This document shows, in pieces, positions 2,731-42,314 of a stretch of 64,000 bases of DNA (its first letter is position 1; every line of letters starts with the position of its first letter). Source of the DNA: an uncultured Candidatus Saccharibacteria bacterium. Its GTDB lineage: Bacteria > Patescibacteriota > JABMPQ01 > JAQVVF01. The stretch lies in contig CAZNOH010000001.1 in NCBI GenBank assembly GCA_964574655.1, positions 201,852 through 265,851 of the forward strand, in the 5' to 3' direction. Both the position numbers and the translations under genes were made by a program. The notes below the pieces were generated by a model. It saw only the letters and a program-made list of their open reading frames with translations. It was not told the DNA's origin and did not search any database.

Positions 2731-2753
2731 TAGTATATTAGCAACATATTTTT

Positions 2754-4058
2754 ATGAACATAGCTTTTTTTACCGACACTTATCATCCTTATGTTTCTGG
2801 TGTTGCTAATTCAATAGATTTATTTAAAGATGAGCTTGAAAAACAAGGTCATCAGGTTTTTATTTTTGCGCCATTATTAAAAGATGAAAATGGAAATATT
2901 CCGAAAGACGGTCCAAGAGTTTATCGCATTGAATCTTTGAAGCAGGATGTTTTTTCGGAATTTACAATGACCTTGCCTAATTTACCGCCGATTTTTCATG
3001 ATTTTTACAAATTCAAAATTGATGTTGTTCATTCTCATACTCCATTTTATATGGGAATGTATGCGAGCATTGTTGCTATTTTTTATAATATTCCGGTTGT
3101 TCATACCTATCACACTCTTTATGAAAAATATACTGGACATTCATTGTTCAAGAATTGGTATAGAGTGGATAAAGCAGTAATGAGTTTGGCAAAAGATGTT
3201 TCAGTATTTTATAGCCAGAGATGCGATGCTTTAATTTCGCCTTCTGAAAAAGTTAAAAAAATGTTGCAAGAATATGGGGTAAAAAATGATATTTCTGTTA
3301 TTCAAACAGGAATTGAATTGGAAAAATTTGATAATATTGAGAAAAATTATTTGAGATCGAAATTTAATATTCCAGCTGATAAAAAAATAGTAATGTATTT
3401 GGGCAGAGTAGCTCTTCCTAAAAATCCAATGTTTCTAGCGGAAATGTTTGAAAAAGTGGCTAAAGAAGATGAAAATTGCGTGATGGCGATAATAGGCTCT
3501 GGTCCAAGCTTAGATGATTTGAAAAAGGAATTTGAAAAAAAGAAATTGCAGGATAGAGTTATTTTTGGCGGATTTGCAAATCGAGATGAAGTGCCAAAGT
3601 GTTTTGCTGATGCATCAATTTTTGTTTTTGCATCAAAGACTGATACACAAAGTTTAGTTCTATTGGAAGCAGCAGCATCTGGTTTGCCGATTGTAATGTT
3701 AAAAGATGAAGGTTTGACTTCTGTTGTATCAGACTTAGAAAATGGCTTTGAAATTCCAAATGATGATTCAAATTTGTATTCCGAAAAAGTTTTGGAGCTG
3801 TTGCGAAATTCGGATTTACGTGCTAAGATGTCGACAAAGTCATTGGAATTAGCAAAATTATTTTCAATCCAAAATCAAACTCAGAAATTATTAAATTTAT
3901 ATTTAGAAACAATAGAATCACACGAGCAAGCTTCTTGGAGAAAGAGAATAAAAAGAGGATTGAATAAAGAAATAAATTTGAAAGATTTTTTTATGGAAGA
4001 TGGACAGTTCAGGATATTGAAAAAACTAAGAAAATTAATGGACAAAATTAAAGGTTAA
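2754..4058 (+). CDS. GT4 (group 1) glycosyltransferase, MGDG/glucosyl-diacylglycerol-synthase-like
   Basis: N-terminal FFTDTYHPYVSGV motif, and a C-terminal GT-B region with an E-x7-E-like segment (LLEAAASGLPIV). Confidence 0.65.
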   Translation: MNIAFFTDTYHPYVSGVANSIDLFKDELEKQGHQVFIFAPLLKDENGNIPKDGPRVYRIESLKQDVFSEFTMTLPNLPPIFHDFYKFKIDVVHSHTPFYMGMYASIVAIFYNIPVVHTYHTLYEKYTGHSLFKNWYRVDKAVMSLAKDVSVFYSQRCDALISPSEKVKKMLQEYGVKNDISVIQTGIELEKFDNIEKNYLRSKFNIPADKKIVMYLGRVALPKNPMFLAEMFEKVAKEDENCVMAIIGSGPSLDDLKKEFEKKKLQDRVIFGGFANRDEVPKCFADASIFVFASKTDTQSLVLLEAAASGLPIVMLKDEGLTSVVSDLENGFEIPNDDSNLYSEKVLELLRNSDLRAKMSTKSLELAKLFSIQNQTQKLLNLYLETIESHEQASWRKRIKRGLNKEINLKDFFMEDGQFRILKKLRKLMDKIKG

Positions 4059-4076
4059 ATTAAATAAAATAATTTT

Positions 4077-4559
4077 ATGCCAGACAAAATTGAAAGAACA
4101 TTAGTTATTATTAAGCCAGATGGTTTGCAAAGAAATCTTTTAGGCGAGGTGATTTCTCGTTTTGAAAAAAAAGGATTAAAAATTACGGCCTTAAAAATGA
4201 TGCAATTGAGTGATGTATTGCTAGATGAACATTATGCGCATCATAAAGATAAGCCATTTTTTAATGACTTAAAGGGTTTTATGAAAAGCGCGCCTTGCGT
4301 GGCAGTTGTTTTGGAAGGCTATGATGCAATATCAGCTGTTCGTTTGCTAGTAGGTCCAACAAAGGGCTATGAAGCTGATGCTGGCAGTATTAGAGGTGAC
4401 TTATGCATATCTGGATCAAGCAACATTGTTCATGCATCCGATAGTCCAGAAAATGCTGAGAAAGAGGTTTTTAGATTTTTCAATAATGATGAATTGTTTG
4501 AATATAAAAAAATTGATTATGATTATCTTTATTCTGAAAAGGAAAAGAAAGTAGAATAA
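4077..4559 (+). CDS. ndk: Nucleoside diphosphate kinase
   Basis: ERTLVIIKPDG and NIVHASDS (the active-site His region) are both conserved. Confidence 0.9.
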   Translation: MPDKIERTLVIIKPDGLQRNLLGEVISRFEKKGLKITALKMMQLSDVLLDEHYAHHKDKPFFNDLKGFMKSAPCVAVVLEGYDAISAVRLLVGPTKGYEADAGSIRGDLCISGSSNIVHASDSPENAEKEVFRFFNNDELFEYKKIDYDYLYSEKEKKVE

Positions 4560-4583
4560 TCTTTAGATAACGTAAATTATAAA

Positions 4584-4609
4584 TGAGCCAAAAGTTGGCT
4601 CATTTTTTT
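4584..4609 (+). terminator. Intrinsic terminator after ndk
   Basis: tgagccaa-aag-ttggctca stem followed by a T7 run. Confidence 0.6.
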
Positions 4610-4625
4610 ATCCACATAAATAGTC

Positions 4626-4653
4626 TTGACAGTATTTTTTAATCTGCTATACT
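4626..4653 (+). promoter_or_regulatory. Sigma70-like promoter: TTGACA, 16-bp spacer, TATACT
   Basis: The consensus hexamers lie upstream of the yerC-like gene. Confidence 0.45.
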
Positions 4654-4660
4654 TTATCTA

Positions 4661-4686
4661 AGTAAATCACTTTACTAAAGTAAATT
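4661..4686 (+). promoter_or_regulatory. Palindromic operator candidate AGTAAAtcacTTTACTaaAGTAAAT
   Basis: A perfect 6-bp dyad plus a third half-site lies between the promoter and the start codon of the TrpR-like regulator gene. Confidence 0.3.
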
Positions 4687-4692
4687 ATATTT

Positions 4693-5013
4693 ATGCCAAA
4701 ATGGCGCAATCGAAAAACTGATAATTTAATAAATGTGATTCTTGATTTGAAAAATCAAAAAGAAGCGCGGAATTTTTTTCGTGATCTTTTGACGGAGCCG
4801 GAATTGATTGAATTTGGTAATCGTTGGCAAGCGGTACAAATGTTGGATCGTAAAATTTCTTATACTAAAATTGTAAAACAGACTGGTTTGAGTTCTCGAA
4901 CAGTTGCAAGAATTTCTAAATGGCTGAATGATGGGATGAATGGCTATAGATTGTCTTTAGATAGATTAAATAAAAAAAATCATCATTACTCTTCTTATCT
5001 CAGGAAGAGCTAA
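4693..5013 (+). CDS. TrpR-like YerC/YecD family DNA-binding protein
   Basis: The HTH region TKIVKQTGLSSRTVARISKW resembles the YerC/YecD family. Confidence 0.6.
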   Translation: MPKWRNRKTDNLINVILDLKNQKEARNFFRDLLTEPELIEFGNRWQAVQMLDRKISYTKIVKQTGLSSRTVARISKWLNDGMNGYRLSLDRLNKKNHHYSSYLRKS

Positions 5014-5040
5014 TTTTGTTTTAAATACTAAATTAATAAT

Positions 5041-5066
5041 CTCTTCCTGAATTGGAAGAGTTTTTT
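5041..5066 (+). terminator. Intrinsic terminator
   Basis: ctcttcc-tgaatt-ggaagag stem followed by a T6 run. Confidence 0.55.
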
Positions 5067-5089
5067 ATTTATTAATTATTTTAAAAAAA

Positions 5090-5863
5090 ATGCAATTACC
5101 AAATCTAAAAATTGAATCAGAATTAATTTCAAAATATGTTTTATTGCCTGGCGATCCTGGTCGAGTTGATTTGATTGGAAAAAAATTAAAAAAGTTCAAG
5201 ATTTTTGGCCAGAATCGGGAATTTAGAATTGGCCAGGGATATTATAGAGGAATTTTAATAACAGTATGTTCAACAGGTATTGGTTGTCCTTCAACTGCTA
5301 TTGCAACTGAGGAATTAATAAAAGCGGGTGCAAAAGTTTTAATTCGTGTTGGTACATGTGGAGGAGCTTGGAAATTTGAAATAAAAGAAGGCAGTCTAAT
5401 AATTCCAACTGCTTCAATTCGAGATGAGGGGACAACTAAAGAATACATCGATCAATCTTTTCCGGCTGTTGCAAATTTTGAAGTAATTGATGCACTGATA
5501 GAATCAGCAAAAAAAAGGAAGCAAAAATATTTTGTTGGAATTAATAGAACGCATGACGCATTTTATGGAAATTTTGAATCTATAACGAAATGGGGTAAAT
5601 ATTTGTTGGATGATAAAAAGAATATTGATATGCCAATTTTATCTTCTGAGATGGAAAGTTCAGCTTTATTTGTTATTGCTTGTTTGAGAGGTGTTCGTGC
5701 TGGAGCGATATTGGCTGTAAATTCAAAACCTGAGCCACTGCTGGAAAGGCTGAAAGGCCAGAAGAAAAAAGTAATTACAGAATCAAGTTTAGATTTAACG
5801 AAAAAAACTGTTGAAAAAATGATTGATGTGGTTTTAGAGGCAATATTAATTTTAAATAAATAA
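5090..5863 (+). CDS. Nucleoside phosphorylase of the PNP/UDP family (DeoD/Udp-like)
   Basis: GDPGRVDLIG, STGIGCPS and the TCGG segment are characteristic of the PNP_UDP_1 fold. Confidence 0.65.
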   Translation: MQLPNLKIESELISKYVLLPGDPGRVDLIGKKLKKFKIFGQNREFRIGQGYYRGILITVCSTGIGCPSTAIATEELIKAGAKVLIRVGTCGGAWKFEIKEGSLIIPTASIRDEGTTKEYIDQSFPAVANFEVIDALIESAKKRKQKYFVGINRTHDAFYGNFESITKWGKYLLDDKKNIDMPILSSEMESSALFVIACLRGVRAGAILAVNSKPEPLLERLKGQKKKVITESSLDLTKKTVEKMIDVVLEAILILNK

Positions 5864-5865
5864 TT

Positions 5866-6501
5866 ATGAAAAAAGTTATTTGTTTTGATTTGTGGAAAAC
5901 TTTGGCTTATGAGCCATATTCTTTAGAAGGATATTTTGACTTGGCAATTAAAAAATATCCCAAGAAGGTTACCAATGCAAAAATATTAAGGTTGATTGAT
6001 GAAATTCCGATGAAAAATAGTTTTACTTTGAAAAAATCAGTCAGATTAATACTAGCTGAATTGGGAATTTGCGATGAAAAGTTGGTCAAACAGATAGTGA
6101 AGGCTTGGCAATATTCTTGTGATAATGCCGAACTGTTTTTTGATGCGTTGCCAATTTTAAAAAAATTAAGAAAAAAATATTTGTTAGTTTTAATTACAAA
6201 TACTTCGAAATATGGTTGGAATAGTATAAGTCGGAAGTTCAATTTGAATCAATATTTTGATTTTGTTGCAAAATCTTTTGAGTTAGGTTATGTGAAACCA
6301 GAAACAGAAATTTTTGAGTTTATTGAGAATAAATTCAAAATTTATGAATCAAATGTATTAATGATTGGTGATTCCAGAGAAAAAGATATTTTGCCAGCTG
6401 AAAAAAGAGGTTGGAAAGTAATTAGAATAGACAGAACAATCAAGAGAAAGAATAAGAAAGTAATAAAGACTTTGTTGGATTTAGAAGGAATTACTTTTTG
6501 A
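5866..6501 (+). CDS. HAD-superfamily hydrolase (subfamily IA-like)
   Basis: N-terminal FDLWKTL (DxD-type motif I) and C-terminal MIGDSxxxD. Confidence 0.6.
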   Translation: MKKVICFDLWKTLAYEPYSLEGYFDLAIKKYPKKVTNAKILRLIDEIPMKNSFTLKKSVRLILAELGICDEKLVKQIVKAWQYSCDNAELFFDALPILKKLRKKYLLVLITNTSKYGWNSISRKFNLNQYFDFVAKSFELGYVKPETEIFEFIENKFKIYESNVLMIGDSREKDILPAEKRGWKVIRIDRTIKRKNKKVIKTLLDLEGITF

Positions 6502-6586
6502 TTTTTACTTTTGATAAGGAATTATTTTGGAAGTCTGTTTTGCACCTTAAAAATTAACAATCTCCAAAAGAGGAGAGGAGGGAGAG

Positions 6587-7507
6587 ATGGAAGAGAAAAA
6601 AGGATCGTCGGGATGCCAAGTTCTGATTGGCGAGACTGTAGAAAAGAAAGGAAATAGAGATGCCTTGAAGTTGGAATTGGATGCTTATTTGCGATTGGAA
6701 AATATTTTGGGAGAGAAAAGTAATGTTTTGCCTAAGATTTTGGGATTTGTTGAAGATGAAAATAAGGCAGTATTAAAGTTGGAAAGACTACCTGGCAATG
6801 TTGATTTGGAACAATATATTTTAATAGTTTTTGATGAAGCAGAGAAAATTGAGAATATTAGAATTATGATCGGAAATGTTCTTGAAATGTTGGATGATTG
6901 GTTAGCAATAAAATCAACTGATGATCCAGAAATTTTGTTGTGTGAGATTGGGCAGGCATTGAATGTTGCTTGGGAAAAATATGTGCGACTTGGCGGAGAT
7001 CAAAACTTATTTGATTCTGTTGCGTTGAAAAGTTTTGTAACTGACAAAAAGATTAGAGAATTTCTTTTGACTGGTGTTTCTTTGGGACCATGCCATCGTG
7101 ATCTTTGTACTAACAATATTTGGCCATTGTCAGATAATTCAGTACAGGTTTTTGATCCCAGATGGCAACTGACAGGATCAAGCGTTACAAGCATTGGTCA
7201 TGTTGTTTTGGATCTAGCGTCATTTCGGATTAATTTGGAAAGATTGCAAGCAGATCGGTTCAAAAATGGTTTGTCATTATTGATTCCAATTGACATTGTT
7301 GATTCAAAAATTGATGAATGGATTAGGCAGAAACATTTTGTTAGAGAGTTGTACGATTTGGTATTGCTCAGAAGATATATTGCTTTTGCAGCGTGTAGGT
7401 GTGAGCATTGTATTCATCCATCGCGCTTGCATCGTTTTGAACTGATGGAAAAGCAAGCAGCAATAGTAGGGAATAAGTTGATTAATATTTTTGCAAGGAG
7501 ATCTTAG
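6587..7507 (+). CDS. Kinase-like phosphotransferase (APH / choline-kinase fold)
   Basis: An HRDLCTNN catalytic-loop-like motif. A strong SD (gaggagaggagggagag) precedes the ATG. GC is slightly higher than in neighbouring genes. Confidence 0.45.
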   Translation: MEEKKGSSGCQVLIGETVEKKGNRDALKLELDAYLRLENILGEKSNVLPKILGFVEDENKAVLKLERLPGNVDLEQYILIVFDEAEKIENIRIMIGNVLEMLDDWLAIKSTDDPEILLCEIGQALNVAWEKYVRLGGDQNLFDSVALKSFVTDKKIREFLLTGVSLGPCHRDLCTNNIWPLSDNSVQVFDPRWQLTGSSVTSIGHVVLDLASFRINLERLQADRFKNGLSLLIPIDIVDSKIDEWIRQKHFVRELYDLVLLRRYIAFAACRCEHCIHPSRLHRFELMEKQAAIVGNKLINIFARRS

Positions 7508-8110
7508 ATGCCTGTAGTTTGTTTTGATTTATGTAATACATTAATTACTGCTGGCAAGAAGCAAAGAGGCTACGAAATTATTTTGCAAAGATTTGGATTG
7601 CAGAAAGAACAGTTATATCCTTTTGTTCGTGATGTTTTGATGGTTAAGAAAGAAATTACCTATCGAGAAATGGTTGAAGAATTATTTCAACACCTTGGAT
7701 TAGAAAAGGAAGAATTGGCTAAATTAGAAACTGAAAGACTATGGGCAGAAGATAATAAAAGTTATGTTTGGCTATCGGGAGCGCAAGATTGTTTAGGGCA
7801 GTTGCATAAAAGAGGAATAAGATTAGTCTTGATTTCTAATTTGACATTTCCAGCTTGGCAGGAAATTGATTCCGGACTCGATGTCTCGTCTATGTTTGAC
7901 GAACTTTTCTTGTCATGTATGGTTGGTATATCAAAACCTAATCCGGATATTTTTCGAAAAGTAGTAGAACAATTTGCTTATGAAAAATTTTGGATGATTG
8001 GTGATAGTCAGTTAGATGATATTGAGCCGGCAAAATTGATGGATTGGCAGACTATTCTTGTGCCAAAATCAGCGACTGATTTTCCTTTAATTTTGAGGAG
8101 TTTGTTGTGA
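7508..8110 (+). CDS. HAD-superfamily hydrolase
   Basis: FDLCNTLI motif I and MIGDSQLDD motif. Start and stop overlap the neighbouring genes, suggesting an operon. Confidence 0.6.
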   Translation: MPVVCFDLCNTLITAGKKQRGYEIILQRFGLQKEQLYPFVRDVLMVKKEITYREMVEELFQHLGLEKEELAKLETERLWAEDNKSYVWLSGAQDCLGQLHKRGIRLVLISNLTFPAWQEIDSGLDVSSMFDELFLSCMVGISKPNPDIFRKVVEQFAYEKFWMIGDSQLDDIEPAKLMDWQTILVPKSATDFPLILRSLL

Positions 8111-8538
8111 TGAAAGTTTTAATTTTTGATATTGATTTGGATAAAGGACTGATGAAATCATTTGAAAATTTTGGTTTTGTTGTTTGCGATGTTGAAGAAA
8201 TGACGCAAAGTATTTTGGAATGGGAAGGCTGGAAGGATTTTGACAGATCGAGGACTGTATTGGTCTTTCCAGGTAATGGCGCGAATTTGTTGAAAAGATA
8301 CTTGTCTGAAGATTGGTTAGCTGGTTGGAAAACTGAAAGTGTTTTTGCAAAGCGGTTTTGGGAACCGGGGAGAGATCCTTATGTTATAGTTGAACGAATA
8401 TTTCCAAATCAGATGGCATTAGGTATTGAAAGAATTGTGTTGTTAGATGATGTTGTTTCTAGTGGGATGACATTTAGAAAAATGCGCAAGAAAAATAGTC
8501 CTTGGATTCCCAATGTATCATGGAGTGGCGTGACCTAG
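8107..8538 (+). CDS. Type I phosphoribosyltransferase, N-terminal 143 codons up to an in-frame TAG
   Basis: PRPP-binding motif IVLLDDVVSSGMTF. Confidence 0.55.
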   Translation: MMKVLIFDIDLDKGLMKSFENFGFVVCDVEEMTQSILEWEGWKDFDRSRTVLVFPGNGANLLKRYLSEDWLAGWKTESVFAKRFWEPGRDPYVIVERIFPNQMALGIERIVLLDDVVSSGMTFRKMRKKNSPWIPNVSWSGVT

Positions 8539-8739
8539 ATTATCCAAAAGGCAGCCAATACGATTGGGTTTGAAAATGTTTTTGCTGTTAAAACATTTGG
8601 AGAGAGCGATACAAAAGTGCCGATTATATCTTTGTCAACTTTGATTATGGAAAAGGATATTGCAGTTTCTTTTGCAAAACGTAATTTTTCTGCTGAACTT
8701 GGTTTGGAATTCTTAGCTTTATTGGAGAAATTAAGGTAG
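8107..8739 (+). pseudogene. Phosphoribosyltransferase interrupted by an in-frame TAG at 8536-8538 (nonsense pseudogene or readthrough candidate)
   Basis: The same frame stays open for 66 more codons after the TAG, to a second TAG at 8737. That is far longer than expected by chance in 30% GC DNA. The combined 210 aa matches the normal PRTase length. Confidence 0.4.
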
Positions 8740-8795
8740 AGTTTGTTCCTTGAAGACCTAGCAATAGGTCTTTTTTTATGATAGGATAATCTTTA

Positions 8796-8849
8796 ATGTG
8801 GATTCTTTTCTTGACAAGATATTCTAATAGTATATAATGAATTATATGA
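8796..8849 (+). promoter_or_regulatory. Terminator-promoter module: gaatccatataatgtggattc hairpin, T-run, then TTGACA-17-TATAAT
   Basis: A near-identical 30-bp module (aatgtggattcttttcttgacaa) is reused at 12282-12336, and a related one at 13392-13444. Confidence 0.5.
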
Positions 8850-8855
8850 AAAATA

Positions 8856-8912
8856 TTAGCCGACAATTTCATATGCATTTCTGGTATTCAATGATTTTGA
8901 GTCGGCTTTTTA
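8856..8912 (+). ncRNA. Candidate small RNA (about 57 nt): promoter-proximal transcript ending in a hairpin plus U-run
   Basis: Begins a few nt after the -10 box. The agccgac...gtcggct stem is followed by a T5 run. It contains no ORF. Confidence 0.25.
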
Positions 8913-8946
8913 TTGCGTAAGTTTATACTAAATATTTTATAAAAAA

Positions 8947-9160
8947 GCTGGCTCAAAATTTGGGCCAGTTTTTGTTTGAATCGCGAATATACACAAATGC
9001 GAATATAAGTTTTAATAAATATTATGTTAAATATCAGTCGACAATTTAATTTTTATATGTGGTATTACCATTTCATTTTTATGAGTCGGCTTTTGCGTTT
9101 ATAAGATAATTATTATTTTAAATATATTGTGCAAAGACCGGCTCTAAAGGCCGGTTTTTG
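8947..9160 (+). repeat. Cluster of three more hairpin + T-run units
   Basis: The units are ctggctc..gggccag+T5 (8948-8974), gtcgac..gtcggc+T4 (9036-9094, a paralog of the 8867-8912 hairpin with a G-U-compatible change), and accggc..gccggt+T5 (9133-9158). Confidence 0.45.
8980..9008. repeat. CGCGAAT / CACAAAT / GCGAAT phased units (same family as the r-protein-operon spacer arrays)
   Basis: tcgcgaatatacacaaatgcgaatat. Confidence 0.4.
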
Positions 9161-9180
9161 ATTGTTCTTTACAACAAGAG

Positions 9181-9250
9181 GATCCACCTACGCTTGCGAG
9201 CTTTGGTGGATAAGTCCGCCTTCGTCCTGTGGGACTTTGGCGGACAAGGG
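9181..9250 (+). repeat. GGCGGACAAG hairpin/leader element, copy A
   Basis: ccacc..ggtgg and gtccgcc..ggcggac stems, followed by a purine-rich SD and an ATG. Homologous copies occur at 12211-12262, 12396-12447 and 17885-17950. Confidence 0.5.
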
Positions 9251-9260
9251 AGAAAAGGAA

Positions 9261-10979
9261 ATGCAAGGGATAACAGGACAACAGCATAGCTCTAATGAAC
9301 AAGAAAATTTTGGAAGAAGCTTGGAAAGAGAATATTTGGAACAAGGTTTGTATTGGGGTAGGATTGGTAGTAAGCCAAAAGATTATACTGCGCGGATTGG
9401 AATGGAAACTTATCCATTGAGTGGAAGCGAGGTTGAAACTTTGAGAAGACTGGGAATTTTAATTCCTAGATTTTTAGAAGGATGTGTTGATTTAGCGAGA
9501 AGATCTGTGTCTGGTGAATATCCATGGCTCTGGCAGGATTTGTGTTTTGGGAGATCGGATTTGCAAATTGCTATTTGGAAAAGAGAGCTTGAAAGAAAAG
9601 ATATCGTGTTGGCAAAGAGAGTAAGAATCGATGCGATTCGCACTGACAAAGGCTTGAGAATTAATGAGTTTACTTTAGGAGCGACTGGATCTGGATATAG
9701 CGGCTTAATTGATCTGATTTCTCGTAAGTTTTTTACGGGAAAGAATTTTTTTGAACCAATTGCCAAAAAATATGTTGAGGCAATACATGATCTGTTGCCA
9801 AACGGTGGTTTTGTTGGTATTCTTTTGACTCCATGGCGAGAATTATATGGGCCGGAGCAGTTTGCTTTGACTGGCTTGCTAAATGAATTTGGGAAAATCT
9901 TTGGTCTAAAATTTGCATTTGCATTTACTTATGAGGCTGAAGCAAGAGAAGGTGGCGTGTATTTGAGAGGCGAAAAATTGGATTTGATTGAAAGAGTTTT
10001 TAAAGAGTATACAGAAATTGATAAATTGATCTTGAATAGACTGGTAGGGCTTGCTGCAAAAATTGAGAAGCAGATTATTGATGCATATTTTGAAGGAAAG
10101 GTATTGTTGCATCCAAATCTTTTGACTTTTCTTGATTATAAAGAGTTGATGGCTTGGTTGTTTGACGAAGAGTTAGAATCAGAATGGAGAAAATATTTGA
10201 CAGACGACATGTTTGAGGAACTGAAAAATATTTTTGCTTACACAATTATTTTTAGGCCAGGTAGTTTTGTTTGGAAAGGCAAGAAATATGAAGAATCAGC
10301 CATGAGAGATTTAGAAAGCCAAATAGTGAAAAACATGGAATTTGAATTTGAAGGTAAAAGATTGATGCTGTTTTGTAATAATGGAGTGCAAACAAATGTT
10401 TGGACTGGTGAAAGTCTTATCGATGGTTTGGGAAATCTTGATGTGATAATTGATTGGCTAAATAAGATTGAATGTGGGAGCTATACTTGTCCAAAACAAA
10501 TAGCAGATCAAATTACTTTTTTTGCTAAGTCAGACCGTTTAATTATGATTGAAAAAGAAAGTGGGAGATGGAAGTTGAAGATCGTACAAGTTAAGAATGT
10601 TTTGTACTCTGATATTGTTTTGAAATTGTCTGGTGGAGATAACCAAGCAGCAGGTGGACACGGGATTGCTATTAGTAGATTGATGCCAAGAAAAATATGG
10701 AGTCGACATGTTAGTAATTTTTTGAAGCTAGCTCAAGTAAGAACTGTTGTTGCTCAAGAATATTGTGAGATGGCAGTTGATGAGATGATGGTCTTTGATC
10801 CAGTGACCAAAAAAGTGAGTAAAGAAAATGTAAGAACAAGAATTTGTGTTTGGTACTGGCTTGATAATGATGCGAGCAATTCTAGTTTTGGAGGAAATAC
10901 GGTAACTTGCATTCCAATCTCTGACGGCTATATTGTGCATGGCCGGTCTAATTCGGCGATGACGGCTTGTTCTTTTTAA
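9261..10979 (+). CDS. Hypothetical 572-aa protein (possible ATP-dependent ligase-like enzyme; not recognisable from sequence alone)
   Basis: Long ORF with an SD (aagggagaaaaggaa) 6 nt upstream. I chose 9261 over the ORF-track start at 9162, which lies inside the repeat element. GC is higher than in its neighbours. Confidence 0.5.
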   Translation: MQGITGQQHSSNEQENFGRSLEREYLEQGLYWGRIGSKPKDYTARIGMETYPLSGSEVETLRRLGILIPRFLEGCVDLARRSVSGEYPWLWQDLCFGRSDLQIAIWKRELERKDIVLAKRVRIDAIRTDKGLRINEFTLGATGSGYSGLIDLISRKFFTGKNFFEPIAKKYVEAIHDLLPNGGFVGILLTPWRELYGPEQFALTGLLNEFGKIFGLKFAFAFTYEAEAREGGVYLRGEKLDLIERVFKEYTEIDKLILNRLVGLAAKIEKQIIDAYFEGKVLLHPNLLTFLDYKELMAWLFDEELESEWRKYLTDDMFEELKNIFAYTIIFRPGSFVWKGKKYEESAMRDLESQIVKNMEFEFEGKRLMLFCNNGVQTNVWTGESLIDGLGNLDVIIDWLNKIECGSYTCPKQIADQITFFAKSDRLIMIEKESGRWKLKIVQVKNVLYSDIVLKLSGGDNQAAGGHGIAISRLMPRKIWSRHVSNFLKLAQVRTVVAQEYCEMAVDEMMVFDPVTKKVSKENVRTRICVWYWLDNDASNSSFGGNTVTCIPISDGYIVHGRSNSAMTACSF

Positions 10980-10999
10980 GGATTGTTCTTTTATGGATT

Positions 11000-11033
11000 G
11001 GTTAACAAATGTAAAATTTTGTTAACCTTTTTT
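11000..11033 (+). terminator. Intrinsic terminator
   Basis: ggttaacaaa..ttgttaacc stem followed by a T6 run. Confidence 0.55.
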
Positions 11034-11130
11034 GAAAATTACTAAATTTAAGATATACTAAATTGTTAAATTGTTCAATTGTTAATTCGAAAAAATATTG
11101 TATGGTAAAAAATGATGTTAATTAAATTTT

Positions 11131-12210
11131 ATGACAAAACAAGAAAAAGAAGCATTGAAAACTTTTTTAAGTTTAATAAAAATTGATAGTGAAACAGGCA
11201 ATGAAAAATTGGTTGCTGATTTTATTATTAATTATTTAAGAAAAATTAATGTTAATGCAATCAAAGATAAATTTGGAAATGTTATTGCAAAGATAAAAGG
11301 AAAAGGTGAACCAATTATTTTGTGTGCTCATATGGATACGGTAGCGCCTGGAAAAAATATAAAGCCAATAGTTAAGAATGGCGTGATTAGGAGCGATGGC
11401 AAGACAATTTTGGGAGCTGATGACAAGGCTGGTATTGCTGGTATTCTTTTTGCAGTTAAAAATTCAAGAAATAAAAAAAATAATAAACCTTTAGAATTGA
11501 TTTTTACAGTTGAAGAAGAAATTGGCTGTGTTGGCGCAAGAAATTTGGTTTTTAATACTATTAAGTCTAAGAAGGCAATAATTGTTGACAGTTCATCACG
11601 TTGTGGTTTTATTACAATTGGCGCTCCTTTTATTCAAAGTTTTTCAGGTGAAATCATTGGTAAAATGGCGCACTCGCGCGCACCAGAGGAAGGAATAAAT
11701 GCAATTAATTGTTTTGCGGAATTTGTAAAAATGTTTAGACCAGGAAGAATCAGTAAATATTGTGTTTCAAATATTGGCTTTGTTTCTGGTGGAAGAGGCG
11801 GTAACGTGATTTGCGATCAAATAAATTTTGTCGGCGAGATTAGAGCAATAGATAATGATGTTTTCAGAAAACGAGTTATTATTCTTAAAAAAATATTAAA
11901 AAATGCTTGCAGAAAATTTGGTGCAAAGTATAAACTAAAAATGGAGGAAAGCGTTGTTGGTTATGATCATAAGAAGAATAGCGCTTTGGTTAAAATGATT
12001 TGTAATGGGATAAAAAAAACTGGTTTAAAAGTATCATACGAAAAAAGAATGGGAGCAACTGATGCTAATGTATTTTGTGAAAAAGGAATAGAGGCTTTGA
12101 GTATTGGTTATGGTCGAGAAAAATGTCATAGTGTGAAAGAAAATATCAGGGTTTCGGATCTGGTAAAAATAGCGGGAATTCTTGAAAATCTGATACGCCT
12201 ATGTCCATAG
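11131..12210 (+). CDS. M20-family metallopeptidase (ArgE/DapE/PepT-like)
   Basis: CAHMDTV and GADDKAGIAG metal-ligand motifs. Confidence 0.7.
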   Translation: MTKQEKEALKTFLSLIKIDSETGNEKLVADFIINYLRKINVNAIKDKFGNVIAKIKGKGEPIILCAHMDTVAPGKNIKPIVKNGVIRSDGKTILGADDKAGIAGILFAVKNSRNKKNNKPLELIFTVEEEIGCVGARNLVFNTIKSKKAIIVDSSSRCGFITIGAPFIQSFSGEIIGKMAHSRAPEEGINAINCFAEFVKMFRPGRISKYCVSNIGFVSGGRGGNVICDQINFVGEIRAIDNDVFRKRVIILKKILKNACRKFGAKYKLKMEESVVGYDHKKNSALVKMICNGIKKTGLKVSYEKRMGATDANVFCEKGIEALSIGYGREKCHSVKENIRVSDLVKIAGILENLIRLCP

Positions 12211-12262
12211 GACTTTCACCTTCGCTTCTGCTTCGGTGGACAAGTTGGCGGACAAGGAAAAT
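12211..12262 (+). repeat. GGCGGACAAG element, copy B, immediately after the TAG stop
   Basis: ggactttcaccttcgcttctgcttcggtggacaagttggcggacaagg. Confidence 0.5.
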
Positions 12263-12281
12263 TAAGATAGTGTCATAAAAA

Positions 12282-12373
12282 AGAATCCATATAATGTGGA
12301 TTCTTTTCTTGACAAAATATTTAATTAAGATATACTAGCGGATATGTTCTTTGACATCTAATGTCATTTTTTT
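12282..12373 (+). promoter_or_regulatory. Reused terminator-promoter module (TTGACA-17-TATACT) followed by a short tgacat-cta-atgtca + T7 terminator/attenuator
   Basis: Shares a 30-bp identity with 8796-8826. Confidence 0.45.
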
Positions 12374-12395
12374 ATTCTCAAAATGGCGCCCTAGA

Positions 12396-12447
12396 ATAGG
12401 GCAAAAGTCCGCCAAAGGATATTGGCGGTATTCGGAGGGAAAGGGAA
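12396..12447 (+). repeat. GGCGGACAAG-family leader, copy C: gtccgcc..ggcgg hairpin plus SD (ggagggaaaggga)
   Basis: Same architecture as copy A, immediately upstream of an ATG. Confidence 0.45.
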
Positions 12448-13374
12448 ATGGAGTTTGGAACGTTCGTAGATCTGGTGCGGATGGCTGGCGGTTGCAGAGA
12501 TGTTGAAGGGAATGAAATGCATGGAATGCAAGTGATCGAGCGGGTGGCAAAGGAAAATGATTTGAACCTAGAGAGAGTTATTCAGTTTTTTCAGGAGTAT
12601 GGACTGAGATGCGATTGTCAGGTTCCTTGTCTAGTAATTTCGAATGGCATGCTTCGAATGGCTTGGTTAACGATGACGATGGGCAGAAGTATTGAGATTG
12701 GTTTGCCTAGTGGTTTGGGACAAGAAAGGACACCCACAAGACGTTTTGATGCGTCTTCGTGTGAAGAGGGGGCGTGAGATGCAGGTTGGAACTTTCTATC
12801 AAGAGCTGAATGCTCGTCGTGGCGGATGTTGCAAAGATGGAAAACACAGTTTGCAAAGAACTGAAGAAGTGATTGCAGAATATAATGCAACGCAGAAACG
12901 TGGATCTGGCAGAATCTATTTTGGAAGGGTGATGGTTTTCTTCAGAGCCTTGAGAATTGAATGCGATTGTCAAGTTCTGGCGAGATTCAATCCTTTTCAA
13001 GATCTTATGTGCGTTCAGAATTGGAATTTGGCGATTTTGCCAAGCAGTAGCAGTCCTGTTGGATCAGAAGGCAAAGGTTTTTTTTATCTATTGCAAAGCA
13101 GAAGGGCAAAATTCGGTGAACTGAAAATTGAACCTGTTTTGACTCTAGAGAGAGGTGACTATTGAGACAAGGCCAAATGGTAGATCGAATACTTTCGGCA
13201 TTGGTCTTTAGCCTATTTAGCAATCAGTTGCCAGTTGATTTCGTTTTCATGATGAATCAGGCAAGACGAAAAGAAGGTGTTCCTCTCGAACGATGCGAGA
13301 AAGCTGTTTCGACAGTTCGGATTCAGAGGAATCCAAGAGATAAAAGATTTCATTTTTTGAAACTTCGCGGTTAG
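12448..13374 (+). pseudogene. Frame-disrupted GC-richer gene remnant encoding repeated (L/I)xCDCQV motifs
   Basis: ORFs in frames 1, 2, 1 (12448-12777, 12692-13165, 13162-13374) overlap end to end. There is an internal DNA duplication (gatgcgattgtcaggttcc at 12605 and gaatgcgattgtcaagttct at 12960). A strong SD precedes the first ATG. Confidence 0.3.
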
Positions 13375-13416
13375 TTTGTTCTTTTTCATAAAGCTACATT
13401 AATGTGGCTTTTTTTA

Positions 13417-13444
13417 TTGACAAAATAGAAAAATGTTATAATAT
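13417..13444 (+). promoter_or_regulatory. Promoter TTGACA..TATAAT, preceded by a hairpin + T-run
   Basis: Third copy of the terminator-promoter module architecture. Confidence 0.4.
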
Positions 13445-13534
13445 ATATTGATGTTTGGACGATAATCATTCTTAGAGGAAAGATCTTTAGAAAATTATTT
13501 CGTGATAGTAGGAACCCAAAAAAGGAGGGAGAGA

Positions 13535-14191
13535 ATGTCAGAGAACAAGACTCGATTTTCTAGTATCGTGTTATTTGTTTTGATAAGCGTTTTGTTATCT
13601 TGCGAACAAGATCAGAGTCAAAACCAAAGTATTTCTTTGTCGGAAGATCAGTTTGGAAGCGTGTCAGGTGCAGTATATATTAAGTTCCCGGGAGGAGGAG
13701 TCATTCCTTATTTAGCTATAAAAGAAGGTCGAGAAATACGATGTTTATTTACTGAAGAAGGGAGGTTTCTATATGAATGTACTGGACAATACAATGATTT
13801 TGATACGGAATTGAGAATACAGTATAGCTATAAGGGTAACAATAGCGATCTTATGGATGCTTGTAGATCTAATCCTCTATGTCAATACGAGGGAGTTGAT
13901 GCGGTAGATTTTGACGGGACATATTCTTTTTCCAATTTGTTAATTGGCAAATACGAAGTTAAGGTAGGCGCTCTTCATATTGAGAAAGAAAGTAAATTTG
14001 TCAATTCTGAATGTTTTGCTATTAAGGACAATGGTGACAAATTGTCTGTAGAAGGTGTTAATTTGAATTTCTCTGTGTGGGGTAGCAGTTTTTATCAAAC
14101 AGTTGGTAGTGAGACAATTGCTGATATCACAGTTCTGGCAAAGTATTGGGCTACTCGGTATCCGACATTGAGATGCGAAGTAATTGAATAG
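13535..14191 (+). CDS. Secreted / lipoprotein-like Cys-containing hypothetical protein
   Basis: The SD aaaaaggaggga precedes the ATG at 13535. The signal peptide carries an LLSC lipobox-like motif, and the mature part has 8 Cys. Confidence 0.5.
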   Translation: MSENKTRFSSIVLFVLISVLLSCEQDQSQNQSISLSEDQFGSVSGAVYIKFPGGGVIPYLAIKEGREIRCLFTEEGRFLYECTGQYNDFDTELRIQYSYKGNNSDLMDACRSNPLCQYEGVDAVDFDGTYSFSNLLIGKYEVKVGALHIEKESKFVNSECFAIKDNGDKLSVEGVNLNFSVWGSSFYQTVGSETIADITVLAKYWATRYPTLRCEVIE

Positions 14192-14299
14192 AAAATTTCT
14201 TTGCTTGGATCTATAATAATTTTTGTTTTTTTGTGTAAGAAGTTATGTATTAGCTTCTTTTTTTTGTTGATTGTGAGGTTGTTAAAGCGTATAATAATA

Positions 14300-14455
14300 T
14301 TTGTGTCGGGGACTAGTATACCGGCAGGCAGGTATGCCCAATGGGGTGGGTAGTGAAGTTTTAGAATTTTTATTCTAATATCGGGGAATAGTATATCGGT
14401 AGTACGCATGTACGGGGTACATGTAGGGGGAGTCCAATTCTCCCTTCCCCGAAAG
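14300..14455. repeat. GC-rich tandemly duplicated structured element (ncRNA candidate)
   Basis: Two diverged copies of about 75 nt (tcggggactagtataccggcaggcagg... and tcggggaatagtatatcggtagtacgc...). Contains the perfect hairpins catgtac-ggg-gtacatg and ggggag..ctccc(t)tcccc. Not coding. Confidence 0.3.
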
Positions 14456-14473
14456 TTATAAATGTAATTAAAC

Positions 14474-14502
14474 TTGACATTTTTTTTGATTTTTGTTATG
14501 AT
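14474..14502 (+). promoter_or_regulatory. Promoter TTGACA-17-TATGAT
   Basis: Consensus hexamers about 75 bp upstream of the ATP-grasp gene. Confidence 0.45.
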
Positions 14503-14578
14503 ATCCTAACAATCAAATAATCAATTTTTTCTAAAAAGACAGTCTTGTACAGAGTGTCTTTTTATATAGATTTACATT

Positions 14579-15577
14579 ATGAAAAAGATACCATATTCAA
14601 AATTTAATTGCACAGGAGCATTGTTGTCGGCGGCCAAAAAAAAGGGCGTTAGTGTTGAGTTGGTTGATGAAGTTAGAGGCTTGAGGATTTTTAGTAAAAA
14701 AGGTAAAAATGTCTATGTAAAATGGCATGTGCCTGATTTGAATAGTCATATTTCTTGCAATATATCTGGCAACAAAGCTTTGGCAAAATTAATTTATAAT
14801 AAAAACAAAATTCCGAATCCAAAAGGTTGGATTTTAAAAAACATGCGCAAGACTTTGCAGATGATTGATCAAGGAATTATCAAATTTCCAGTTGTAGTCA
14901 AGCCAATAGATGGCAGTCAAGGTCATGCAGTAACTGTTGAAATAAAAGATAAGGAATGTTTAATTGGTGCAATTAAAGAAGTTTATAAATACAATCGTCG
15001 TAAAAAAGGTAGGAAAAATTCTTTTTTGATAGAAGAATATCTTTCGGGCTGTGATTATCGTCTTTTGGTGATGGACGGAAAGGTGCTGACATCATTACGC
15101 CGTGAGCCGGCTTATGTTGATTGTGATGGTAAGCAGACAATTAGAGAGTTGATTAGTGAGTATAATAATCAGCCAGGAGTAGGGAAGGATCAGCCATTAT
15201 GTCCAATTGTGAAGGATTTTGAATTTAGAAGGAATTTGAGAGAAAAAAGTATAACTGAAGAAAGCATTATTTTAAAAGGTAAAAAAGTTTATTTGAGACA
15301 GAATGCTAATGTCAGTACAGGAGGCAGATCTTTTGAATGTGATGATGAAGTCAATCCTGAATATAAAAAACTGGCAGTGAAAATTGCTGATATTTTTCAA
15401 TTGAGATTTTGCGCAGTTGATTTAATTGCAGTTGATATTAAAAAGTTTGAAAAATTTGGCATAATTGAAACAAATTATATGCCGGGTTTTGATATTCATG
15501 AGGTGCCGTATCAAGGCAAGCCATTTCGTGTGGCTGAGTCTTTGATGGATGCGATGTTTGATTCGTCTTTGTCTTGA
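14579..15577 (+). CDS. ATP-grasp ligase (RimK / cyanophycin-synthetase-N-domain-like)
   Basis: PVVVKPIDGSQGHAV, EEYLSGCDYRLLV and NANVSTGG are ATP-grasp motifs. Confidence 0.6.
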   Translation: MKKIPYSKFNCTGALLSAAKKKGVSVELVDEVRGLRIFSKKGKNVYVKWHVPDLNSHISCNISGNKALAKLIYNKNKIPNPKGWILKNMRKTLQMIDQGIIKFPVVVKPIDGSQGHAVTVEIKDKECLIGAIKEVYKYNRRKKGRKNSFLIEEYLSGCDYRLLVMDGKVLTSLRREPAYVDCDGKQTIRELISEYNNQPGVGKDQPLCPIVKDFEFRRNLREKSITEESIILKGKKVYLRQNANVSTGGRSFECDDEVNPEYKKLAVKIADIFQLRFCAVDLIAVDIKKFEKFGIIETNYMPGFDIHEVPYQGKPFRVAESLMDAMFDSSLS

Positions 15578-17045: not shown

Positions 17046-17095
17046 GCAAGCGCTGATTTTACGCTGATTCTGAACGCTGATAAACGCTGATGATT
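17046..17095. repeat. Post-stop ACGCTGAT array (4 units)
   Basis: caaGCGCTGATtttACGCTGATtctgaACGCTGATaaACGCTGATgat. Starts 5 nt after the TAA stop. Unit spacings are 11, 13 and 10 bp. Confidence 0.7.
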
Positions 17096-17165: not shown

Positions 17166-17354
17166 ATGCCAAAAAGAAAAGGCGTATTTAGAACAAAAAT
17201 GGAACGAAAGGGCAAAAAATTGTATGCCAAGCGGGAAAGAACTGGAGAATTCAAAGACATCCAGAATATTTCCAAATGTGTGAAGGGCGAAATAAAACAG
17301 CACTCGAAGAAAAAAGTTAAGCCTGGCTATGGTTTTCGCGGTGAGACAAAATAA
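17166..17354 (+). CDS. Small, very basic hypothetical protein (62 aa)
   Basis: Lys/Arg-rich ORF in an AT-rich context. No recognisable family. Confidence 0.3.
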   Translation: MPKRKGVFRTKMERKGKKLYAKRERTGEFKDIQNISKCVKGEIKQHSKKKVKPGYGFRGETK

Positions 17355-17455
17355 ATTTTATTATTTTTTTAGATATTAGATATTCTAAAAATATAGTCTT
17401 GTTATTTGTTAAAAATCTAATAAAATATAATTATTGCTTATAACATAAAAAATAT

Positions 17456-17884
17456 ATGGCATTGTTAGAATTAATAAAAAACATAGTTGCGGAATTACCA
17501 GCAGAATTAAAAGAAAAAAACGGAAAATATGAATTTGAATTGAAAATTGCTGAGCGAAAAGTTTTTTTATCAAACAAGAAATTAATGTATATCGGAAAAT
17601 TTAGAATTGAGGAGGAAAAGAAAGAGCTAATCTTTTCTGAAATGTTAAAAGAAACTGGATTCGGATTATCTGGGGGTGGAATTGACGAGACTCCTGGATT
17701 TAGTTTTAAGACGGAAACTTATAAAACTGGAATTGGTCCAAGAAATGGAAAAATAGAAGAGCAGTCAGAATTATTTAAGAAGAAATATGATTATAAATTT
17801 GATTTTCAAGCAATAAGAAGTCAAATTGAACAAGCAGCTAAAGATGCTGGCTATAATTTTAAATATCAAATAATTGGAGTATAA
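17456..17884 (+). CDS. Hypothetical protein
   Basis: 142-aa ORF with typical codon usage. Confidence 0.4.
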   Translation: MALLELIKNIVAELPAELKEKNGKYEFELKIAERKVFLSNKKLMYIGKFRIEEEKKELIFSEMLKETGFGLSGGGIDETPGFSFKTETYKTGIGPRNGKIEEQSELFKKKYDYKFDFQAIRSQIEQAAKDAGYNFKYQIIGV

Positions 17885-17950
17885 TCCGCCTTTGTCCTGC
17901 CCTCGTTTTACTACGGCAGGCAAGCCTGTGGGACTACGGCGGACAAGAAG
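17885..17950 (+). repeat. GGCGGACAAG element, copy D (nested hairpins), directly after the stop
   Basis: tccgcc..ggcgga outer stem and cctgcc..ggcagg inner stem. Contains the gggact..ggcggacaag motif. Confidence 0.5.
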
Positions 17951-18024
17951 TTAAAGTATTTTTTTTGTAGTGAGTCTTTAAAAAAGTTTTGTAGTGTGTT
18001 TTAGAGGTTTATAATATTAACAGA

Positions 18025-42002: not shown

Positions 42003-42076
42003 AACAAGCGCTGAATTAAAAATTTTTGTGACAAAATTTTTAATGCTGATTTCGAACGCTGATTTGACGCTGATAG
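42003..42076. repeat. Post-stop CGCTGAT array (AGCGCTGAAT..AATGCTGAT..AACGCTGAT..GACGCTGAT)
   Basis: Starts 3 nt after the secY TAA stop and is followed by a terminator. Confidence 0.6.
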
Positions 42077-42127
42077 AAGGTGGAAACCTTCTTTTTTCTT
42101 GACAAGATTAAAGATAAGGAGTATTTT
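42074..42127 (+). promoter_or_regulatory. Terminator (agaaggt-gga-aaccttct + T6) fused to a TTGACA promoter at 42099
   Basis: Hairpin + T-run, then TTGACA-17-TATTTT. Confidence 0.45.
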
Positions 42128-42314
42128 TTAAATTGATGATAAATATTTACAAAAATTTTAATTTAGTTCCAACTCCTACTGGTTTTTGTGGGCTAGTTTG
42201 ATTTTGTTTTAAATAATTTAAAATAAGAACAGACTGGCTCAGATAGCCAGTTTTTTGTACTTTGAGAAACAAGTCTAGTGCATAAGTTTTATGTGCTAGA
42301 CAAAGGAGGAGAAG

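Follow-up and report, generated by a model that had tools for sequence, protein, structure and literature searches.

Organization of the locus

The 64,000-nucleotide stretch of DNA analysed here (the window) is a low-GC piece of a Patescibacteria chromosome (GC about 0.33) on which nearly all genes lie on the + strand, and which contains the usual cluster of EF-G, EF-Tu, SecY, Adk and Map. Our subject is the segment at 8760-14460, where a gene for a predicted ATP-grasp amide ligase and its M20 peptidase neighbor are followed by several small genes with strong Shine-Dalgarno (SD) sequences, and where three copies of a promoter module recur. An initial annotation of this DNA had taken the segment for an accessory insert. 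We find that its several transcription units have been inherited vertically as one locus within a small Patescibacteria clade, and that it is not a recently captured cassette array. Between the first promoter module and the ligase gene lie two units, each a small open reading frame (ORF) followed by a terminator, that may act as attenuators in tandem. The features from the left edge of the segment to its right edge are as follows.

8752-8773, + strand: intrinsic terminator after the phosphoribosyltransferase (PRT)-like ORF, GAAGACCTAGCAATAGGTCTTT followed by a T-run
8793-8843, + strand: module 1, with relic terminator 3' arm AATGTGGATTC, T-run, -35 box TTGACA (8811-8816) and -10 box TATAAT (8833-8838)
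8846-8920, + strand: leader ORF 1, MKNISRQFHMHFWYSMILSRLFIA, 24 codons, its ATG 7 nt past the -10 box
8858-8864 and 8899-8907, + strand: segment 1 (AGCCGAC) and segment 2 (GAGTCGGCT) within leader ORF 1
8943-8973, + strand: terminator T1 of unit 1, segments 3 and 4, AAAAAGCTGGCTC..GGGCCAGTTTTT
9024-9104, + strand: leader ORF 2, MLNISRQFNFYMWYYHFIFMSRLLRL, 26 codons, a paralogue of leader ORF 1 with an in-frame 6-nt insertion
9132-9160, + strand: terminator T2 of unit 2, a 12-bp stem with 6 GC pairs, and a T-run
9246-9259, + strand: strong SD AAGGGAGAAAAGGA, unpaired in the predicted fold
9261-10979, + strand: predicted ATP-grasp amide ligase, 572 aa, with a eukaryotic glutathione synthetase/GspS/YgiC/Cp1B-like fold
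11000-11059, + strand: fourth hairpin, T-run and promoter-like unit, TTGAAA-16-TATACT, 5' of the M20 gene
11131-12210, + strand: M20 peptidase, PepT-like (TIGR01883, 256 bits against a cut-off of 274), no SD, AT-rich
12283-12341, + strand: module 2, with terminator hairpin GAATCCA..TGGATTC, T-run and promoter TTGACA-16-TATACT (12309-12336)
12344-12373, + strand: module 2 mini-ORF ATGTTCTTTGACATCTAA (MFFDI), starting 7 nt past the -10 box
12448-13374, + strand: three tightly packed SD-led genes, two paralogues (109 and 128 aa) and a 70-aa ORF
13390-13449, + strand: module 3, with terminator hairpin (13390-13411), T-run and promoter TTGACA-16-TAATAT (alternatively TATAAT)
13535-14191, + strand: predicted lipoprotein, 218 aa, SD-led, its signal peptide with LLSC lipobox read from the sequence
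14297-14350 and 14381-14453, + strand: remnant of an ancestral tRNA-Pro and, after it, an intact tRNA-Pro(GGG); right edge of the segment

A repeat search of the window returned one family with three copies, at 8793-8843, 12291-12341 and 13399-13449, and the degenerate 27-mer AATGTGGMTTYTTTTMTTGACAARATA matches exactly these three sites, against 0.00 matches expected by chance. The reuse of a module, as first noticed in the initial annotation, is therefore real, although several of its particulars need correction. Modules 1 and 2 are alike over the claimed 30 bp, reading as about 29/30 over that stretch, but the exact run common to them is 23 nt; the promoter spacer is 16 nt in all three modules rather than 17; and an intact hairpin precedes the T-run in modules 2 and 3 but not in module 1, which retains only the 3' arm of one, the real terminator there being the one at 8752-8773. 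The promoter-like unit 5' of the M20 gene had been missed, and the same sequence pattern is visible at this position in relatives. Consensus scores of the promoters in modules 1, 2 and 3 are 12/12, 11/12 and 10/12. The core that recurs three times in the window is a T-run followed by a TTGACAARATA promoter unit, and apart from a near-copy at 42095-42109 this pattern is confined to the module sites. Orthologous and paralogous copies align with one another, and the modules are one paralogous intergenic unit that comprises a terminator 3' arm, a T-run, a sigma-70-type promoter (TTGACAARAT..TATAAT) and an ATG 7-8 nt past the -10 box.

Conservation of the segment and variability of its upstream neighbor

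The closest genome found is the Patescibacteria metagenome-assembled genome JAQVVF010000002 (L003), whose ATP-grasp protein is 87% identical to the product of window gene 14579-15577. A second relative, L004, was located via the 572-aa ligase, and these two are the nearest relatives. Comparison by blastn shows that window 2749-4546 joins directly to 8831-9178 in L003, with collinearity continuing through 14327 and beyond, so that the block absent from L003 is 4547-8830. This block holds a TrpR-like gene, a nucleoside phosphorylase, two HAD hydrolases, a 306-aa ORF and the PRT-like ORF. In L004 a different filling lies between NDK and the module, and homology resumes at 8792, at the first base of module 1, which is thus the left edge of the block conserved with that genome. 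The variable part is therefore the upstream block (4547/4987-8791), ending exactly at module 1. To its right the order of ligase, M20 peptidase, two DUF2695-like paralogues, 70/71-aa ORF and lipoprotein is identical in the window, L003 and L004. Both relatives have conserved orthologues of modules 2 and 3, and module 1 is fully conserved in L004, with only a diverged promoter remaining in L003.

The initial annotation had placed an accessory insert between the PRTase and ATP-grasp genes. Both L003 and L004, however, are collinear with the entire segment, and it is the PRTase block that varies. The segment is thus no variable accessory insert, and its horizontal acquisition as a set of cassettes, each gene captured with its promoter and an SD-sequestering hairpin leader, is largely refuted by synteny. 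The tRNA-Pro remnant at the right edge would suit such an acquisition, as would some of the compositional evidence considered below. Set against the conserved order of modules and genes, they leave the capture explanation very unlikely, and nothing points to a recent event.

The remnant itself is identical over its first 18 nt to the corresponding L003 tRNA (L003 9791-9863) and is missing the T-arm; the complete tRNA-Pro(GGG) some 30 nt downstream has a different anticodon stem and T-arm. The pair suggests that this tRNA was once the site of a replacement or an integration. Single-gene differences surround the conserved locus, among them a window-specific 650-bp insertion (17354-18008) with a 142-aa ORF and a hairpin (hairpin D, below), and L003-specific ORFs of 172 aa and 260 aa (L003 11014-11727 and 14496-15490). 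These indels show frequent small-scale gene turnover between the window and L003. The only direct repeat flanking the variable block is a 10-mer, ATAATCTTTA, at 4556 and 8786; we set it aside, since chance alone would give about as much in AT-rich DNA and the site is missing from L003.

Two genes of the variable block deserve mention. The PRT-like ORF (8107-8739) is a single frame broken by one in-frame TAG (8536-8538), which could reflect a pseudogene, a sequencing error or read-through. Its 'PRTase' label derives only from a VLLDDVVSSGMT-type motif, its similarity to the L009 PRTase is not significant, and it lies in the block that L003 lacks. Upstream of the putative attenuators, at 4693-5013 in the window and at 4369-4692 in L004, there is a gene of the Trp-repressor family (PF01371, E 3.5e-17) that L003, L008 and L009 lack.

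An ATG 7-8 nt past the -10 box also gives modules 2 and 3 tiny ORFs. The module 2 mini-ORF, MFFDI (12344-12361), overlaps the palindrome TGACAT-CTA-ATGTCA, which is followed by T7, and the orthologous site in L003 and L004 has a conserved MFF mini-ORF with a TTGACAT..ATGTCAA palindrome. In module 3 the mini-ORF is MFGR (13453-13467; ATG about 8 nt past the -10 box), with MFKEN in the relatives.

Tandem leader-ORF and terminator units upstream of the ligase gene

Module 1 had been thought to drive gene 9261 directly. Between its promoter (8811-8838) and that gene, however, lie two tandem units that had been overlooked, 8846-8973 and 9024-9159, each made up of a small ORF, its stop codon and a strong intrinsic terminator. 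The same two units are found 5' of the ligase gene in the window, L003, L004, L008 and L009/L010, and one divergent unit with swapped arms precedes the most distant ligase homologue, L012. Repeats of the GCGAAT/ACGAAT type separate the two units in every relative (window 8981-9008).

The leader ORFs are conserved as reading frames. Across all 11 units the ATG is invariant and the frame open, lengths differ by 6 nt in frame, and stops interrupt the other frames. In the middle stretch between the conserved ends, 52% of in-frame codons specify Phe, Tyr, Trp or His, compared with 16% and 30% in the other frames, 23% in shuffles (0/5000 of which reach the observed count) and 10.6% in the proteome. 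At the RNA level the conserved peptide ends, S-R-Q and S-R-L, correspond to two segments able to pair with one another: segment 1 occupies codons 5-7 and segment 2 lies just ahead of the stop codon. The 7-bp helix between segments 1 and 2 is formed in 94% of the cells scored (slid controls 16-56%), and the 10-bp helix between segment 2 and the 5' arm of the terminator, segment 3, in 91% (slid controls 20-51%); the latter includes three pairs outside the 1:2 helix, and each of the two helices has two compensatory pairs. The terminator helix 3:4 is 97% paired and followed by a U-run. Slid controls over the helices together span 15-64%. Read from the sequences, the stop codon falls about 10-19 nt past segment 2 and ahead of segment 3 in all units. 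Masking segment 2 yields the terminator in every unit; masking segment 1 makes the antiterminator the minimum-energy fold in only 3/11 (unit 1 of L008 and both units of L009). It is conserved complementarity, and not folding energy, that carries the case for attenuation.

In four genomes the ATG stands 6-8 nt past the -10 box, from which we infer that the transcript probably starts at the AUG itself; the transcript from module 1 is thus probably leaderless. L009 has a 21-nt leader with AGGAAG ahead of the ATG.

These arrangements have the architecture of a ribosome-mediated attenuator, here in tandem, and we propose the following model. Module 1 would fire a transcript into the two attenuators in succession. 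A ribosome stalled in the aromatic/His stretch would leave segment 2 free to form the antiterminator, whereas a ribosome that reached the leader stop codon would mask segment 2, allowing the terminator to form. Stalling would in this model be the signal, and the amino acid or acids sensed might be among those in which the stretch is rich. Read-through would lead to expression of the SD-led ATP-grasp amide ligase, the adjacent M20 gene having a promoter of its own. We consider the account of the locus as a whole given here, from its vertical inheritance and modules to its attenuators and dispersed hairpins, more likely than not.

Several observations weigh against the model. The units are found in only five to six genomes and the two units of each pair are paralogous, so the covariation is thin; the 1:2 helix is mostly not above shuffle controls, and double changes in 2:3 occur at only 2 pairs. 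Segments 1 and 3 are alike, and part of the 2:3 complementarity could stem from a duplicated terminator. The terminator is still the minimum-energy fold in 8/11 units when segment 1 is masked. The codons mix four amino acids, with His, Tyr and Phe interchanging between orthologues and no run of a single residue, and the sole invariant codon, TGG, also lies within a stretch able to pair with segment 4. There is, moreover, no obvious tie of an ATP-grasp ligase to aromatic or histidine supply.

The small ORFs might instead encode functional peptides, either ribosomal precursors or substrates to be extended or modified by the ligase and trimmed by the M20 peptidase, or small toxins, with the terminators only setting the ratio of peptide to enzyme transcripts. 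Some ATP-grasp ligases, such as RimK and PGM1, act on ribosomal peptides or proteins; the peptides here are conserved in tandem beside the ligase/M20 pair in every genome, and substitutions in their core stay within His, Tyr and Phe. Yet their conserved S-R-Q and S-R-L coincide with the RNA segments, and a peptide would not need the 2:3 complementarity, the three pairs outside the 1:2 helix included. In L012 the peptide differs while the three-way pairing scheme is kept with swapped arms, a related unit at 42.1 kb has an unrelated peptide and an unrelated gene, and the structural neighbors of the ligase are small-molecule ligases. We consider functional peptides unlikely.

Gene regulation in Patescibacteria, the Candidate Phyla Radiation (CPR), is almost uncharted, and our literature search returned nothing on leader-peptide attenuation in this group. 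The locus offers a testable candidate for tandem ribosome-mediated attenuators, tied to a rare pair of ATP-grasp ligase and M20 peptidase.

A related unit at 42.1 kb and distant matches

A covariance model (R1) built from ten units also matches window 42136-42255, with 41.6 bits and E about 2e-4. This site lies between secY and adk and comprises the following.

42076-42314, + strand: related secY-adk unit, with a terminator, the module near-copy (42095-42109), a 21-codon ORF from 42136 and a terminator at 42232-42255
42273-42299, + strand: hairpin just upstream of a strong SD, followed by the orphan gene 42315-42656

The terminator here carries the same arm sequence as the leader units, and in an alternative fold the 3' end of the ORF joins both terminator arms (z = -4.7). 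The orphan gene encodes 113 aa with a weak zinc-ribbon-like signature, and a search for its homologues returned only the copy of the source genome itself. A heptamer, CGCTGAT, occurs in 3-4 tandem copies both after secY (42008-42074) and after the DEAD-box gene (17051-17091).

The promoter/leader unit is thus shown to be reused 5' of an unrelated gene, which argues for a cis-regulatory role rather than for a peptide substrate of the ligase. That the near-copy heads an orphan inserted between secY and adk could be counted in favor of capture; what it does keep alive is a weakened form of the earlier idea, namely that a promoter/leader unit is reused and marks lineage-restricted, SD-led and somewhat GC-richer genes.

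A scan of metagenomes for the pattern of the unit gave 8 matches, mostly unrelated terminators. In one, an unrelated metagenome contig (Ga0210057_1000228, L020, 2672-2782) whose downstream gene is uninformative, the small ORF MIINKNNWWWGDITG contains three Trp codons in a row, and after it come the GAGTCGGCTTTT and GCTGGCTC..GGCCAGTTTTT sequences known from unit 1. It scores only 30.8 bits with R1 and could be distantly related to the attenuator. For L014-L016 the scores are about 28 bits.

The combination of promoter, leaderless small ORF, terminator, stem-loop and strong SD might be a portable regulatory cassette that controls lineage-specific genes, its leader peptides being arrest peptides that respond to a metabolite or to the overall state of translation instead of acting as plain starvation sensors. 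We think this a long shot. If true, it would describe a cis-regulatory class not previously reported for the CPR, by which the lineage domesticates specific genes in a genome with an SD-less core, one copy being planted between secY and adk.

The ligase, its peptidase neighbor and the downstream genes

The 572-aa protein has only six homologues among 5.8e9 proteins and no significant sequence match in Pfam, NCBIfam or the PDB; a PDB profile search with the ligase family was also empty, and one remote homologue gave a weak, sub-threshold match to GSP_synth. The AlphaFold2 model of the protein has a pLDDT of 70.7, and its top 40 Foldseek matches in the PDB are without exception glutathione synthetase, GspS, YgiC, Cp1B or trypanothione synthetase, with E values from 2.5e-8 to 3e-4, a probability of 1.00 and TM-scores, normalized to target length, of about 0.3-0.57. 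Cp1B, from the E-64 pathway, is an amide ligase acting on small molecules (PMC12568646). On the basis of the predicted structure we assign the protein as an ATP-grasp amide ligase. An M20 peptidase gene lies 3' of the ligase gene in every genomic context recovered.

The products of 12448 and 12779 are paralogous (BLASTP E 3e-6) and weakly similar to DUF2695; homologues of 12448 were not found beyond the copy of the source genome itself.

Shine-Dalgarno strength and composition

The duplex energy of the SD has a median of -0.1 kcal/mol over 70 genes, and 10 genes lie at -8 to -15 kcal/mol (6587, 7508, 8107, 9261, 12448, 12779, 13162, 13535, 42315 and 55192). Some 85% of genes, including those for EF-Tu, EF-G and ribosomal proteins and all other translation genes, have no SD and AT-rich upstream regions. 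The contrast first drawn between strong SDs in the segment and SD-poor native genes is confirmed, with 9261, 12448 and 13535 among the ten strongest. The picture for base composition is more mixed. Genes in the window average GC 0.340 +/- 0.032 and GC at third codon positions (GC3) 0.256 +/- 0.052. The cluster 12448-13374 is a clear outlier (GC 0.41-0.47, GC3 0.33-0.44) and the GC-richest part of the window; genes 9261 and 13535, by contrast, are within one standard deviation of the mean, and the M20 gene is AT-rich (GC3 0.20), so the proposed GC-richness is clear only for 12448-13374.

The outliers at 12448-13374 would fit capture, as would the lineage-restricted nature of the genes, with 6 homologues of the ligase and none for 12448 and 42315. 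Against this, the M20 gene in the middle is compositionally native, and the SD strength and GC3 class of each gene are kept in L003, L004, L008 and L009: ligase, paralogues and lipoprotein have a strong SD and higher GC3, and the M20 gene has neither. These classes, like the modules, are conserved in relatives down to 49% amino-acid identity. A contrast in signals and composition that is conserved across relatives is an old and stable property of the genes, not the scar of a recent capture. The initial annotation had named uniform composition and conserved synteny as what would speak against it; the synteny proved conserved and the composition not uniform.

What sets apart a minority class of lineage-restricted genes is a strong SD, which frequently has a stem-loop, whatever its sequence, immediately 5' of it. 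Translation starts in this genome fall into two classes, an SD-less majority (about 85%) and a minority of GC-richer, lineage-specific genes with a very strong GGAGG SD, and the contrast at this locus marks a class of genes rather than a recent acquisition. Our literature search found nothing relevant on SD use in Patescibacteria.

Palindromic hairpins

The last component of the segment is a set of hairpins that had been described as homologous leaders sharing the motif GGCGGACAAG. The motif is indeed over-represented, with 12 occurrences at up to one mismatch against 0.82 expected, although three of the matches (at 16973 and 17009 in the tail of the DEAD-box gene, and elsewhere within ORFs) resemble Gly/Arg/Gln-coding repeats or chance occurrences. 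Hairpins A-D were found where they had been reported, B and D starting right at stop codons (12208-12210 and 17882-17884).

9182-9248, + strand: hairpin A, two tandem elements like the repetitive extragenic palindromes (REP) of other bacteria, 9182-9215 and 9214-9248
12196-12258, + strand: hairpin B, overlapping the last codons and stop (12208-12210) of the M20 gene; absent in L003/L004
12407-12430, + strand: hairpin C, GTCCGCCA..TGGCGG
17884-17947, + strand: hairpin D, REP-like, with an inner CCTGCC..GGCAGG copy, starting at stop codon 17882-17884
46895-46929, + strand: REP-like element in frame within a GT2 glycosyltransferase ORF, with compensatory outer stem TCCTCC..GGAGGA

A structural scan for CCNCC..GGNGG hairpins counted 6 in the window (0.34 expected), one each in L008 and L009, and none in the 21 kb of L003 and 10.6 kb of L004 compared. 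The L008 copy from the scan lies in the leader of the ligase gene; a motif search gave a shorter L008 copy at about 7755, which, like the L009 copy, is just after a stop codon. Set side by side, the copies share one architecture of roughly 35 nt, RTCCNCC-TTC-GTCC-loop-GGAC-TTY-GGNGGAC-AAG, whose outer stem has compensatory variants (G-C, A-T, T-A) and whose unpaired positions, TTC, TTY and the AAG tail, are conserved. The two elements of hairpin A read ATCCACC-TAC-GCT-TGCG-AGC-TTT-GGTGGAT-AAG and GTCCGCC-TTC-GTCC-TGTG-GGAC-TTT-GGCGGAC-AAG, and hairpin B seems to consist of a REP-like element with a second one nested inside it. The C-terminus of the M20 peptidase differs from that of L003 and L004 exactly where hairpin B overlaps it. 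In the GT2 ORF the hairpin encodes ..DPPASRGTSEDKS.., and comparison with a paralogue and with PDB 5mlz gives about 11 extra residues near it, in a region where the alignment is ambiguous.

As leaders these hairpins are not conserved. In the corresponding leaders L003 carries hairpins of unrelated sequence and L004 carries none, and both lack the element at sites A and B; the orthologue of hairpin C in both genomes is CCTGCCA..TGGCAGG, a compensatory change. Sequestration of the SD in the manner of a riboswitch or thermosensor is not supported either: in the folds of A and C the two arms pair together and the SD, 3-5 nt downstream, is unpaired, and an Rfam search, at gathering thresholds over the whole window and at E <= 1 on 8700-14600, matched only noise. 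The minimum-energy fold of the full leader of the second transcription unit does pair part of the SD with the 5' mini-ORF, which could be read in support of capture with regulatory leaders, but this long-range pairing is not reproduced in L003.

The GGCGGACAAG 'leaders' are best described as copies of a dispersed REP-like palindromic element, tandem and apparently nested, that has spread through intergenic sites, presumably by some form of mobility. They might alternatively be RNA stem-loops under selection, protecting 3' ends after stop codons and serving as 5' stabilizers or insulators beside strong SDs. All copies are co-oriented with transcription, which an RNA-level role fits equally well; B, D and the L008 and L009 copies directly follow stop codons; hairpin C is kept in L003 and L004 through its compensatory change; and by reading, unrelated hairpins lie 0-5 nt upstream of a strong SD in about 7/12 SD-led genes of the window and relatives. 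Independently evolved stem-loops agree less well with the conserved unpaired TTC, TTY and AAG tail, or with the tandem, nested (by reading) and in-ORF GT2 copies and their absence at orthologous sites of the nearest relatives, all of which a spreading element fits better. We regard selected stem-loops as possible, if somewhat doubtful, and the two views are not exclusive of each other. It should be borne in mind that the copy number of the element covers the 64-kb window rather than the whole genome. An element that clips gene ends and sits in frame within genes matters for the annotation of small genomes.

Comparison with known systems

With its short genes separated by hairpin-forming repeats, the locus bears a superficial likeness to integron cassettes. 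We rejected an integron/attC array because each unit has its own consensus promoter and order and content are identical in L003 and L004; unlike attC sites, the hairpins show by reading no R/L boxes or GTTRRRY core, and no integrase is among the annotated ORFs of the window, which is annotated only in part.

The palindromic element is closer to the REP and bacterial interspersed mosaic elements (BIME) of enterobacteria and to Rickettsia palindromic elements (RPE). Like these it is an imperfect palindrome of about 35 nt with conserved sequence, dispersed and sometimes tandem, mostly just after stop codons and variable among close relatives, and it has an in-frame coding copy, as RPE do. It differs in that its sequence is unrelated and some copies lie in 5' leaders beside SDs, and its count comes from 64 kb.

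The predicted fold of the 572-aa protein is like that of the glutathione synthetase, GspS, YgiC and Cp1B ligases. The protein is about 100 aa longer, however, has no significant sequence match to them and, unlike them, is always paired with an M20 peptidase.

TnaC is a leader peptide of about 24 codons with a Trp near position 12-13, located upstream of a termination signal, and the units described here have a leader peptide of similar length, an invariant Trp near position 12-13 and a similar placement. The tnaC system uses Rho-dependent termination and free tryptophan in the ribosome tunnel, whereas here there are intrinsic terminators and an antiterminator helix; moreover, the units in L012 and at 42.1 kb have other peptides.

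The units can also be compared with the leader-peptide attenuators of amino-acid operons (trp, pheA, pheST, his and ilv of E. coli and Salmonella). They differ from these in their tandem arrangement, their probably leaderless transcript, their mixture of Phe, Tyr, Trp and His codons and their lack of an Rfam leader match, and also in their setting, upstream of an ATP-grasp ligase rather than a biosynthetic operon and in a mostly SD-less Patescibacteria host. What they have in common with the amino-acid operon attenuators is a short leader ORF enriched in particular codons, an intrinsic terminator ahead of the gene, mutually exclusive 1:2, 2:3 and 3:4 helices, and a stop codon at which a terminating ribosome would mask segment 2.

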